Positions 25,077-26,648 of a stretch of DNA of 26,648 bases are shown piece after piece. The DNA lies in the IMG/VR virus record IMGVR_UViG_2531839149_000016. One strand, given 5' to 3'. The notes below the pieces were generated by a model. That model saw only the letters and a program-made list of their open reading frames with translations. It did not search any database and was not told the DNA's origin. The first letter of the stretch is position 1. Each line of letters opens with the position of its first letter. Source of the stretch: a virus (taxonomy: Duplodnaviria > Heunggongvirae > Uroviricota > Caudoviricetes). The translations under genes were made by a program, and so were the position numbers.

Positions 25077-25364
25077 TCGTTTCGTGATATGCCGCAGAAA
25101 CGTTGTATGCAATAACGTTCTGCGGTTGGCTGATGCACTTTCGAGAGTGTATTGAATAATTTCAAGCCGTTATTGTTTTTACGCGTAACACCATGAAAAG
25201 ACTGCTTATCTGTTGGGGTATTTTTTGGGGCATATATGGGACAGAAATAGGCCACAGATAGATAGTAAGATCGAACTCAGGATGCTTTTGAAAAAATGTA
25301 ACTATCTGAAAAAAACTAGAAAGCGCCAAGGAAACCACAGAATGAGAAAAAACATCTGTGAATT

Positions 25365-26648
25365 ATGGATTTCCAGTTATATTCGCTCGGCGCAGCGTTA
25401 GTGTTTCATGAAATATTTTTTCCTGAATCATCAACGGCAATGGCGTTAATTTTGGCAATGGGAACCTACGGTGCAGGTTATGTGGCGCGTATTGTCGGAG
25501 CATTTATTTTCGGCAAAATGGGCGACAGAATAGGGCGTAAAAAAGTGCTCTTTATTACCATCACCATGATGGGGATCTGTACTACCTTAATTGGTGTGTT
25601 ACCGACCTATGCACAGATTGGTGTTTTTGCCCCCATCTTGCTGGTGACGCTGCGTATTATTCAGGGGTTGGGTGCAGGTGCGGAAATTTCCGGTGCCGGT
25701 ACGATGCTGGCGGAATATGCACCAAAAGGTAAGCGCGGAATTATCTCCTCATTTGTAGCTATGGGAACTAACTGCGGAACCTTGAGCGCAACGGCAATCT
25801 GGGCCTTTATGTTCTTCATTCTCAGTAAAGAGGAACTGCTGGCGTGGGGATGGCGTATACCGTTCCTGGCGAGCGTTGTCGTGATGGTCTTTGCTATCTG
25901 GTTACGTATGAATCTGAAAGAAAGCCCGGTCTTTGAGAAGGTTAATGACAGCAACCAACCCACAGCAAAACCTGCACCTGCTGGTAGCATGTTCCAGAGC
26001 AAATCCTTCTGGCTGGCAACAGGGCTGCGTTTTGGTCAGGCGGGTAACTCCGGGTTAATTCAGACTTTCCTTGCAGGCTATTTAGTGCAGACGTTATTGT
26101 TTAACAAAGCAATTCCAACAGATGCATTGATGATTAGTTCGATTCTCGGCTTTATGACCATTCCGTTCCTTGGTTGGTTATCCGATAAAATTGGTCGCCG
26201 GATCCCGTATATTATTATGAATACCTCCGCGATTGTGCTGGCATGGCCAATGCTTTCTATCATTGTAGATAAAAGCTATGCCCCGAGCACCATTATGGTT
26301 GCACTGATTGTGATTCATAACTGTGCGGTGCTGGGATTATTTGCTCTGGAAAACATTACCATGGCAGAAATGTTCGGCTGTAAAAACCGCTTTACCCGGA
26401 TGGCTATTTCTAAAGAAATTAGTGGTCTTATCGCTTCCGGTTTTGGTCCTATCCTGGCGGGGATTTTCTGCACCATGACGGAATCCTGGTATCCGATCGC
26501 CATTATGATCATGGCATATTCAGTAATTGGTTTAATCTCTGCGCTGAAAATGCCAGAGGTGAAAGACCGTGATTTAAGTGCGCTGGAAGACGCTGCGGAA
26601 GATCAACCGCGTGTTGTAAGAGCTGCGCAACCTTCCAGAAGTCTGTAA
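25365..26648 (+). CDS. ydfJ: MHS-family major-facilitator transporter, 5'-truncated (YdfJ-like)
   Basis: 427-aa ORF with MFS/MHS signatures (…GDRIGRKKVLFITITMMG…RIIQGLGAGAEISGAGTMLAEYAPKGKRG…); starts inside the conserved WYDF-QLY segment and is preceded by an in-frame stop, so the first TM helix is missing; in E. coli K-12 ydfJ is, as I recall, truncated in the same way at the edge of prophage Qin. Confidence 0.85.
   Translation: MDFQLYSLGAALVFHEIFFPESSTAMALILAMGTYGAGYVARIVGAFIFGKMGDRIGRKKVLFITITMMGICTTLIGVLPTYAQIGVFAPILLVTLRIIQGLGAGAEISGAGTMLAEYAPKGKRGIISSFVAMGTNCGTLSATAIWAFMFFILSKEELLAWGWRIPFLASVVVMVFAIWLRMNLKESPVFEKVNDSNQPTAKPAPAGSMFQSKSFWLATGLRFGQAGNSGLIQTFLAGYLVQTLLFNKAIPTDALMISSILGFMTIPFLGWLSDKIGRRIPYIIMNTSAIVLAWPMLSIIVDKSYAPSTIMVALIVIHNCAVLGLFALENITMAEMFGCKNRFTRMAISKEISGLIASGFGPILAGIFCTMTESWYPIAIMIMAYSVIGLISALKMPEVKDRDLSALEDAAEDQPRVVRAAQPSRSL

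Follow-up and report, generated by a model that had tools for sequence, protein, structure and literature searches.

A lambda-site prophage joined to a Qin-split ydfJ gene in an Escherichia coli draft contig: assembly chimera or chromosomal inversion

Known ends of lambdoid prophages

The attL (BOP′) of a lambda prophage consists of an exact 15-bp core, with genes for a 356-aa Int and a 72-aa Xis adjacent to it and the chromosomal gene ybhC outside. In E. coli K-12, the cryptic prophage Qin abuts a ydfJ gene (b1543) of 1284 bp, and nohA-stfQ-tfaQ lie at that end. The 5′ fragment of the gene is ynfP. The Qin core is imperfect: its prophage-side copy reads TGAATTATGGATTTC and its rspB-side copy TGAATTTATGGATTTC. 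Another K-12 prophage end, the right end of DLP12, has the order nohD-aaaD-tfaD-ybcY-tfaX.

Composition of the window

The window, meaning the whole stretch of 26,648 nucleotides that was analyzed, matches contig AQCM01000019.1 in the draft WGS assembly of E. coli MP021552.12 (GCA_000354595.1). All of its parts are ordinary and already known. They are listed here by position.

1-1284, minus strand: chromosomal ybhC, which flanks attB-lambda on the gal side, 99.8-99.9% identical to ybhC of YD786 and about 200 other genomes
1331-1345, plus strand: lambda att core GCTTTTTTATACTAA (attL), between ybhC and int
1346-23642, plus strand: defective lambda/DLP12-like prophage, normally found between ybhC and ybhB, 99.8-99.9% identical to YD786 286287-309907
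1419-2685, minus strand: lambda-type integrase (356 aa) and excisionase (72 aa), from ORFs, annotation of the homologous locus, and matches to Pfam Phage_integrase and Exc
22223-22783, plus strand: nu1/nohD-like small terminase gene (PF07471 match), fused to an stf′ fragment by an old deletion
22728-23597, plus strand: 870-bp stf′/tfa′ repeat common to the ybhC-site and Qin-like prophages, with 97.6% identity between the YD786 copies
23598-23642, plus strand: 45-bp tfa end patch of the ybhC-prophage/DLP12 type, from a three-way alignment and the K-12 DLP12 tfaD end
23642-23643: novel join, ...ATGCCGCAGCAC on the left meeting TTACCTAAATACG... on the right, non-homologous, 0 bp of microhomology
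23643-25364, plus strand: AT-rich (33% GC) right-end remnant of a Qin-like prophage, its last ~270 bp homologous to the K-12 Qin end
24216-24318 and 24958-25081, in the AT-rich block: two further tfa 3′ remnants, from repeat analysis
24451-24648, minus strand: 65-aa ORF in the AT-rich block
25359-25373, plus strand: imperfect Qin att core, prophage-side copy with one T missing, TGAATT-ATGGATTTC, as judged against the 5′ fragment of ydfJ that YD786 and K-12 carry
25365-26648, plus strand: ydfJ′, 427 aa, predicted MHS-family MFS transporter without its first 28 codons, a pseudogene in relatives according to RefSeq annotation

The left end is a lambda attL at ybhC, as the original prediction had stated: the 15-bp core has ybhC on one side and a lambda-type int on the other, just as in lambda. 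No second core was found in the window with up to two mismatches allowed. The reference locus has two copies, the second beside ybhB, and this attR with ybhB is present in relatives and absent from the window. The prophage runs through int, xis, exo-bet-gam, kil, HipA-like/DUF3037, repressor, O (split by IS1), P and ren, and then the nin region, Q, cargo, lysis, nu1, stf′ and tfa′. The IS1 stub in O is the other odd join in the window, and looks like a genuine microhomology deletion.

Unlike lambda, the prophage is defective, lacks head and tail genes, and has a DLP12-like right end. In relatives, the end module of the ybhC-site prophage comprises nu1, a tfa end, a methyltransferase and a second tfa fragment, and is 96-97% identical to the right end of K-12 DLP12. 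The nu1 region of the window is 96.9% identical to the DLP12 nohD region, compared to 92.5% for the Qin nohA region.

The truncated ydfJ gene

As judged from its sequence, 25365-26648 is the well-known ydfJ gene split by a Qin-type prophage, and not a new gene variant. In a profile search this ORF matches TIGR00883 at 453.9 bits, above the curated cut-off of 443.45 bits, as a member of the MHS family of MFS transporters. The ShiA profile aligns with it only from position 37 and the ProP profile only from position 40, so the N-terminus is missing. A TGA lies in frame two codons 5′ of the ATG (...HL-stop-IMDFQLY). The original prediction of a 5′-truncated transporter with an in-frame stop before its ATG is thus borne out, although the codons lost would encode the N-terminal tail and about half of TM1 rather than the whole first helix, as had been supposed.

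The intact 5′ fragment of ydfJ in relatives reads TGAATTTATGGATTTC, where the window has TGAATT-ATGGATTTC. Because one T is absent from the prophage-side core, E-F-M-D-F-Q-L-Y is shifted into E-L-W-I-S-S-Y, and the frameshifted echo of the gene start that had been pointed out is real. The 28 missing codons (MTIEKHERSTKDLVKAAVSGWLGTALEF) adjoin a Qin-type integrase and rspB in both YD786 and K-12. A Qin-type lambdoid phage thus integrated into codons 28-31 of ydfJ, where the core is approximately ATGGATTTC, and the junction is an ancient and ordinary one. This integration left the 3′ 427 codons beside the tail-fibre end of the prophage and would place the first 28 codons ~20-45 kb away, beside integrase and rspB.

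The likeness to K-12 that had been pointed out for ydfJ is exact in its essentials. The breakpoint is identical, the 427-codon remnant is equal in length (likewise 1284 bp), the imperfect core is the same, and the junction strings are essentially identical (...CTGTGAATTATGGATTTCCAGTTATATTCGC...). About 270 bp of the K-12 prophage end are homologous to the window, with 96.3% identity over 25092-26648. K-12 has ynfT, ydfK, pinQ, tfaQ, stfQ and nohA beside ydfJ, whereas in the window this place is taken by a 1.7-kb AT-rich block that contains tfa remnants and lacks a pin gene, and relatives carry J′-lom′-stf′-tfa′ upstream of this block. The suggestion of a Qin-like right end is therefore correct for the ydfJ junction; the nu1-stf′-tfa′ block, which had been included in it, belongs to the DLP12-type end of the ybhC-site prophage, and only 23643 onward is Qin-like.

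Two separate loci in related genomes

The original prediction proposed mapping the window on the complete genome, and in about 200 related complete genomes its halves prove to be separate, with 1-23642 at ybhC-ybhB and 23643-26648 at ydfJ. A distance of 0.81-0.87 Mb (813-866 kb) separates the two loci, which are on opposite strands. The 3006 nt of the right part differ from the YD786 ydfJ locus by 1 nt, at 26462 inside ydfJ′. An inverted pair of prophages with the common repeat (870 bp at 97.6%) is seen in YD786, strain 042 and AR24.2b. The element is indeed bounded by junctions of two integration sites, as had been claimed, and relatives carry a separate prophage at each.

Past ydfJ, the contig continues with ydfI, ydfZ, rspR, ydfG, dcp, ydeJ and ydeI. 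In K-12 and relatives, ybhC and ydfJ point the same way, while in the window they diverge. Therefore only an inversion spanning dif would fit, and a deletion between the two prophages is ruled out. Recombination between two resident prophages, by inversion or deletion, had been proposed for the window; the two repeat-sharing prophages exist in relatives, but the deletion fails on orientation and a homologous crossover fails on the position of the join.

The mosaic repeat and the join

The repeat in the window is a mosaic, carrying the ybhC-copy allele at 14 and the Qin-copy allele at 7 of 21 diagnostic sites. The alleles switch 8 times over these sites, compared to 9.3 times for a random arrangement, and their order is no different from random. 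A single crossover or conversion tract would give one or two switches. By comparison, each flank has a single nucleotide difference from the references, over 11 kb in one case and 3 kb in the other. This repeat allele is present in no complete genome, with a best match of 99.3%.

A low-coverage metagenome contig with ybhC-type flanks has 2 of the 7 “foreign” alleles, and some mosaicism of the repeat may therefore occur in nature. In the 90% cluster of the stf′ product, most listed proteins carry the annotation “partial”, a hint that contigs of other drafts break within the repeat. No allele mixing was seen in the nu1 region, the other long paralogous stretch (97% to DLP12). A majority-vote consensus of three copies, with K-12 DLP12 as proxy for the third, does not reproduce the alleles of the window.

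The repeat is followed by the 45-bp patch, which contains the closing codons of tfa, stop included, along with the left arm of a terminator hairpin, and which has no homologue in the Qin-like copy according to the three-way alignment. The DLP12 tfaD end consists of this same patch and hairpin; unlike DLP12, the window has the module cut after ...GCCGCAGCAC in the hairpin loop, followed by Qin-like DNA, so that the hybrid string GCCGCAGCAC-TTACCTAAAT runs across 23642/23643. The join is thus 45 bp past the homology of the repeat on the ybhC side and 30 bp past it on the Qin side. Since it lies outside homology and has no microhomology, it is not a homologous crossover. A simple RecA crossover within the 870 bp is ruled out by the three-way alignment together with the diagnostic sites, which show the crossover outside shared homology and 8 switches over 21 sites. 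Action of a Pin/Gin-type invertase was also rejected: the window has neither an invertase gene nor a shared crossover site, and K-12 pinQ has no counterpart in it.

No copy of the junction was found in 5,426 complete E. coli genomes, about 200 of which have both prophages. In none of the 5,426 do window positions 1-25000 lie together at a single locus, and full-length matches across the junction reach 87.9% at best. The exact junction has no match among species-representative genomes, metagenome contigs or any fetched locus. No natural module boundary (hotspot or graph-node edge) was found at ...ATGA/TTACC... or ...GCAGCAC/GTC...; partial matches near the join stop 20-30 bp short of it, and DLP12 continues without a break. 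In none of the references examined does the join fall at a repeat boundary. A literature search by strain name found no mention of MP021552.12, and look-ups of strain-specific proteins, aimed at sibling assemblies or the reciprocal junction, brought up nothing but the source contig and short unrelated contigs; exact-protein look-ups covered the blocks with the longest contigs.

Assembly chimera as the preferred origin of the join

The link of ydfJ′ to the lambda-site prophage is probably, though by no means securely, a short-read assembly chimera formed at an unresolvable repeat, and this is held to be more likely than an inversion. The repeat is presumably longer than typical short-read insert sizes. 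Short reads would not span it, so that an assembler would merge reads of both copies into a scrambled mix of alleles and then, on leaving the repeat, continue along the wrong flank. The ybhC prophage of the real chromosome would run on into the methyltransferase-GGDEF-attR-ybhB end, and ydfJ′ would lie behind its own Qin-like J′-lom′-stf′-tfa′.

Several observations are consistent with such a chimera. The source is a single WGS draft contig in which the join adjoins a repeat, and its two parts match (1-23642 at 99.9%) the ybhC-ybhB prophage and the ydfJ locus of the same genomes. The arrangement occurs in 0 of 5,426 complete genomes, and the exact junction is missing from two other collections. 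Sites with the other copy's allele (7 of 21, with 8 switches) contrast with near-unchanged flanks, and the resulting repeat allele has no closed counterpart. The “partial” stf′ proteins hint at contig breaks in the same repeat of other drafts. Moreover, the join lies beyond what homologous recombination can produce, and a real event would have inverted ~0.8 Mb including dif, with replichores of roughly 34:66.

However, a k-mer graph assembler cannot make a join without shared sequence. No sequence is common to both paths at 23642/23643, so a chimera would have to be an artefact of the consensus or overlap kind. The join is also off any repeat boundary in the references examined, the three-copy vote fails to give the alleles, and the nu1 region has escaped mixing. 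In addition, the IS1-stub join looks genuine, so that an odd join here need not be an artefact, and the metagenome contig with 2 of 7 foreign alleles means that natural mosaicism may exist.

Genuine inversion and other readings

The main rival to the chimera is a genuine inversion of ~0.81-0.87 Mb between the ybhC-site and Qin-like prophages, which is plausible but on the whole doubtful. Here the inverted 870-bp repeats would pair, an illegitimate or template-switch join would follow beyond the homology, and patchy correction of heteroduplex would yield the mosaic alleles. The inversion would move dif, TerA, TerC, TerD and TerE along with it, so that fork direction relative to genes is kept while the replichores become very unequal. 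In relatives the prophages are inverted and share the repeat, and the contig is continuous, with the ydfI-to-ydeI order past ydfJ that an inversion predicts. The lack of a shared k-mer at the join argues for support by actual reads, and neither breakpoint is more than 45 bp from a repeat end, a placement that homology-facilitated illegitimate recombination would lead one to expect. The exo, bet and gam genes of the prophage are intact. Precedents include prophage-bounded inversions of up to 1.4 Mb in E. coli O157:H7 (PMC8743559) and a 700-kb IS5-flanked inversion without apparent phenotype in K-12 (PMC4272514).

Against an inversion, it is absent from all 5,426 complete genomes, even from the roughly 200 with both prophages, and its evidence is one short-read-era draft contig. 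A crossover in non-homologous DNA without microhomology is unusual for E. coli, and 8 switches over 21 sites are unlike a single recombination event. The segment that would be inverted contains dif, 41.5 kb inside it; arithmetic with K-12 coordinates gives replichores of ~34:66 and puts dif some 45 kb from ybhC. Among natural inversions bounded by prophages, a major change of the replichores is generally avoided (PMC8743559). Recombination in the cell, as opposed to the assembler, is thus the less likely option. It is only tentatively entertained that MP021552.12 is a natural isolate with a real ~0.8 Mb dif-spanning inversion and replichores of about 34:66; this inversion would go back to repeated template switching, or to homology-facilitated illegitimate recombination, at the tail-fibre repeats.

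A further possibility is that the hybrid right end is an inherited allele. An ancestral prophage, Qin-like or at ybhC, would already have had the DLP12-type tfa end fused to the AT-rich block, and an ordinary homologous crossover in the resulting 0.9-2.6 kb of shared sequence would give the inversion with no visible junction. The tail-fibre ends bear obvious marks of reshuffling, with three tfa 3′ remnants in series in the window and DLP12-type modules in the ybhC prophage, and mosaic alleles occur in an unrelated metagenome contig. This is nonetheless very improbable, as no complete genome has the DLP12-type patch beside TTACCTAAATACG at either locus, the terminator hairpin cut in its loop marks a derived state, and the same asymmetric inversion would still be needed.

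Finally, that the MFS gene is intact cargo of a mobile element with a non-canonical start, an alternative raised with the original prediction, is refuted and retains virtually no probability: its ORF is open over 427 codons and scores above the TIGR00883 cut-off, but this is the chromosomal gene ydfJ, which 5,367 of 5,426 genomes carry, its first 28 codons sit at the opposite end of the Qin-type prophage in YD786 and K-12, a TGA precedes its ATG in frame, and RefSeq marks the YD786 copy incomplete.

Significance and comparison with known rearrangements

If the join is real, it would represent a natural, strongly asymmetric, terminus-carrying inversion by two decayed prophages with an unusual non-homologous junction, and it would bear on the replichore imbalance tolerated by wild E. 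coli. If it is an artefact, it is a warning that prophage “islands” drawn from draft contigs can be two-locus chimeras.

The rearrangements described in E. coli O157:H7 (Fitzgerald et al. 2021, PMC8743559) are inversions between lambdoid prophages via homologous segments, with a bias toward the terminus. They use repeats of >5 kb with the crossover within homology, have been confirmed by long reads or optical maps, and generally leave balanced replichores. In contrast, the window has a 0.87-kb repeat with the join outside it, and the inversion would be strongly asymmetric. Repeat-induced chimeric contigs are alike in having a join at a repeat, mixed paralogue alleles, and occurrence in one draft only and in no closed genome, while the usual signature of a graph misjoin, unlike the window, has shared sequence at the switch point.

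The ends of the window

Two genes form the ends of the window, and they are divergent:

1-1284, minus strand: ybhC, on the outer flank of the lambda core
25365-26648, plus strand: ydfJ', the ydfJ reading frame without its 5' part, 427 codons, terminating exactly at the window edge

The right-hand ORF belongs to the MHS family of MFS transporters (TIGR00883, 453.9 bits in a profile search; cut-off 443.45). Its alignments to the ShiA and ProP profiles begin only at profile positions 37 and 40, which shows that the N-terminus is missing. The gene concerned, ydfJ, is a chromosomal gene present in 5,367 of 5,426 complete E. 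coli genomes. The start absent from the window (ATG ACA ATA GAA ... GCG CTT GAA TTT ATG GAT TTC, encoding MTIEKHERSTKDLVKAAVSGWLGTALEF-MDF) is located at the opposite end of the Qin-type prophage, in the integrase–rspB interval, in both YD786 and K-12. The truncated-transporter observation of the original prediction is thus correct, but the loss is 28 residues: the N-terminal tail plus roughly half of TM1, rather than the whole helix. The in-frame stop that it described upstream of the ATG is present (...HL*IMDFQLY). The frameshifted echo “ELW-ISSY” is also real: the Qin att core reads TGAATTTATGGATTTC on the rspB side and TGAATT-ATGGATTTC on the ydfJ' side (25359-25373), a difference of one T, whose absence converts E-F-M-D-F-Q-L-Y into the echo. 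K-12 ydfJ (b1543), cited there as similarly truncated, is likewise 1284 bp long and lies immediately next to the feature “cryptic prophage Qin”. Its junction string is essentially identical to that of the window, and K-12 Qin has the same att site.

At the left end, the lambda core GCTTTTTTATACTAA occurs once (1331-1345), with a 356-aa integrase and a 72-aa excisionase as inner neighbours. No second core was found in the window with up to two mismatches permitted. This is a textbook lambda attL beside ybhC, as had been claimed, and the proposed structure, an element bounded by two different integration sites (lambda attL left, ydfJ/Qin junction right), holds.

Source contig and related genomes

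A 190-aa stf' fragment (22864-23436) has exact matches in only two contigs, one of which is AQCM01000019.1 (139,643 bp; GCA_000354595.1, E. coli MP021552.12). This contig is 100% identical to window 12864-26648, and its positions 52372-79019 correspond to the window. Past ydfJ it continues with ydfI, ydfZ, rspR, ydfG, dcp, ydeJ and ydeI, the usual ydfJ surroundings.

Mapping on complete genomes places the two halves at separate loci. Some 200 complete genomes, YD786, AMA1167 and strain 042 among them, contain window 1-23642 as a single block with 99.8-99.9% identity, and every match listed ends at 23642. In YD786 the block runs on through genes for a class I methyltransferase, another tfa fragment and a GGDEF protein, then IS1 and the second lambda core, to ybhB. 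It is part of a defective prophage of lambda type whose right end is of DLP12 type (the ybhC prophage). The right end of the ybhC prophage (nohD-tfa-ybcY-tfaX) is 96-97% identical to K-12 DLP12. Window 22728-26648 is found at the ydfJ locus of the same genomes, downstream of Qin-like J'-lom'-stf'-tfa'. A direct comparison of three genomes puts the loci 813 kb (strain 042) to 866 kb (YD786) from each other, always on opposite strands (YD786 +/-, strain 042 +/-, AR24.2b -/+).

The K-12 copy of ydfJ lies on the minus strand, and so does ybhC on the K-12 map, whereas the two genes are divergent in the window; the window arrangement therefore requires an inversion or a false join. This rules out a deletion between the prophages, one of the two forms of recombination originally given as examples. 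The remaining form may have occurred in the assembler rather than in the cell.

Structure of the join

The two prophages share an 870-bp stf'/tfa' repeat (97.6% identity, 21 mismatches between the YD786 copies), which corresponds to window 22728-23597. The window is purely of ybhC-prophage type 5' of the repeat (1 mismatch in 11 kb) and purely Qin-like from 23643 onward (1 mismatch in 3006 nt). The switch, at 23642|23643, lies outside the repeat. Sequence of ybhC/DLP12 type persists for 45 bp beyond the end of homology, a stretch with the final codons and stop codon of tfa plus the left arm of a terminator hairpin (the DLP12 tfaD end), and the Qin-like sequence that is resumed begins, in its own locus, 30 bp beyond homology. 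The sequence across the join is ...ATGCCGCAGCAC|TTACCTAAATACG..., without microhomology, and in the other genomes examined no natural module boundary falls at either breakpoint. None of the 5,426 complete E. coli genomes contains the join; the best full-length match among them (87.9%) is the normal Qin type. An exact 37-mer over the join was not found in species-representative genomes or metagenome contigs.

The repeat in the window is a mosaic of both copies: the ybhC-copy allele (A) stands at 14 of the 21 sites that distinguish them and the Qin-copy allele (B) at seven:

23073, 23148, 23325, 23369, 23410, 23517, 23519: Qin-copy alleles in the window repeat

The order, AAAAAABABABAABBBBAAAA, contains 8 switches. 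Random ordering predicts 9.3 (P(≤8) = 0.34); only 1-2 would be expected from a single crossover or a single conversion tract. This repeat allele occurs in no complete genome (closest match 99.3%).

A low-coverage metagenome contig equivalent to window 22623-23642 (ENA ERZ15185013 NODE_87607) encodes the same 190-aa stf' fragment. It has ybhC-prophage flanks, yet Qin-copy alleles at 22773, 23369 and 23410, which hints at natural gene conversion between the two prophage copies, or at read mixing in that assembly too.

Other features of the two prophages

Three tfa 3'-end remnants lie in series (23500-23620, 24216-24318 and 24958-25081), in the same orientation and 73-84% alike; they document successive replacements of tail-fibre modules at this end of the prophage. 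The third has a whole terminator hairpin like that cut at the join. A less decayed Qin-like right end is found in one genome (CP041031.1, 4327-8267), where the side tail fibre (1119 aa) and Tfa (193 aa) are both full-length and lie directly 5' of the AT-rich block (23643-25364 in the window) and ydfJ'.

In the lambda-type replication gene O (10784-11824), a 97-bp IS1-like left end has taken the place of 75 bp (11358-11454), leaving ORFs of 192 aa and 146 aa; its right join has 3 bp of microhomology (TGA). Three unrelated short contigs have this IS1 end at the identical site, each breaking inside the IS, and strain AH21C062 has a full IS1 there in opposite orientation. The site thus looks like an IS1 insertion hotspot in O. 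Just 5' of the stub, 290 bp of O (11032-11319) contain 10 of the 26 differences from YD786 over 1-23642, a clustering that suggests import of a different O/ori allele.

The interval between kil and the S24 repressor, which holds N and rex in lambda, is occupied by two overlapping minus-strand genes (7458-9034) for a HipA-family kinase (~250 aa) and a DUF3037 protein (~275-280 aa); they may be toxin or defence cargo. At the cro/cII position, adjacent to the repressor, a YdaS-like gene (76 aa) is paired with a YdaT-like one (179 aa; 9948-10787). The cargo between the Q antiterminator and holin (16520-19278) comprises a lipocalin (minus strand), a YbgA-type DUF523/DUF1722 gene (319 aa) and an AraC-type HTH gene, which is an open 195-aa ORF here and is annotated as frameshifted in the related complete genomes of YD786, AMA1167 and NIPH17_0036.

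Assembly chimera or inversion

We lean towards an assembly chimera as the connection of the two loci in AQCM01000019.1. The sole source is one WGS draft contig, and we assume the repeat to exceed typical short-read insert sizes. Most of the stf' cluster proteins listed from other drafts carry the annotation “partial”, suggesting breaks of those contigs at the repeat. The allele mix is near-random despite clean flanks, the arrangement is missing from the ~200 closed genomes having both prophages, and the rearrangement otherwise implied would be costly. Homologous recombination cannot make the junction. Inheritance of a hybrid allele, with an ordinary crossover afterwards, is very improbable. 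However, a k-mer graph needs shared sequence to make a join, so that a consensus- or overlap-type artefact is required, and a three-copy vote model fails with K-12 DLP12 as the proxy copy. The window's other paralogous stretch is without allele mixing, two of the seven foreign alleles recur in the ybhC-flanked metagenome contig, so some natural mosaicism is possible, and, as the IS1 stub in O demonstrates, this contig can contain genuine odd joins.

A real inversion with an illegitimate or template-switch junction is somewhat less likely. The segment that would invert contains K-12 dif (1,590,750-1,590,777) 41.5 kb inside its end. With oriC near 3.93 Mb and attB-lambda near 0.81 Mb on the K-12 map, dif would come to lie ~45 kb from ybhC and the replichores would be roughly 34:66.

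Relation to known systems

Prophage-mediated inversions have already been described (PMC8743559), and a 700-kb IS5-flanked inversion in K-12 showed no apparent phenotype (PMC4272514). If real, the join would be one more prophage-mediated inversion, unusual only in its asymmetry and non-homologous junction. The window contains no new kind of element: the ydfJ/Qin junction, the lambda attL and the DLP12 tfaD end are all known.
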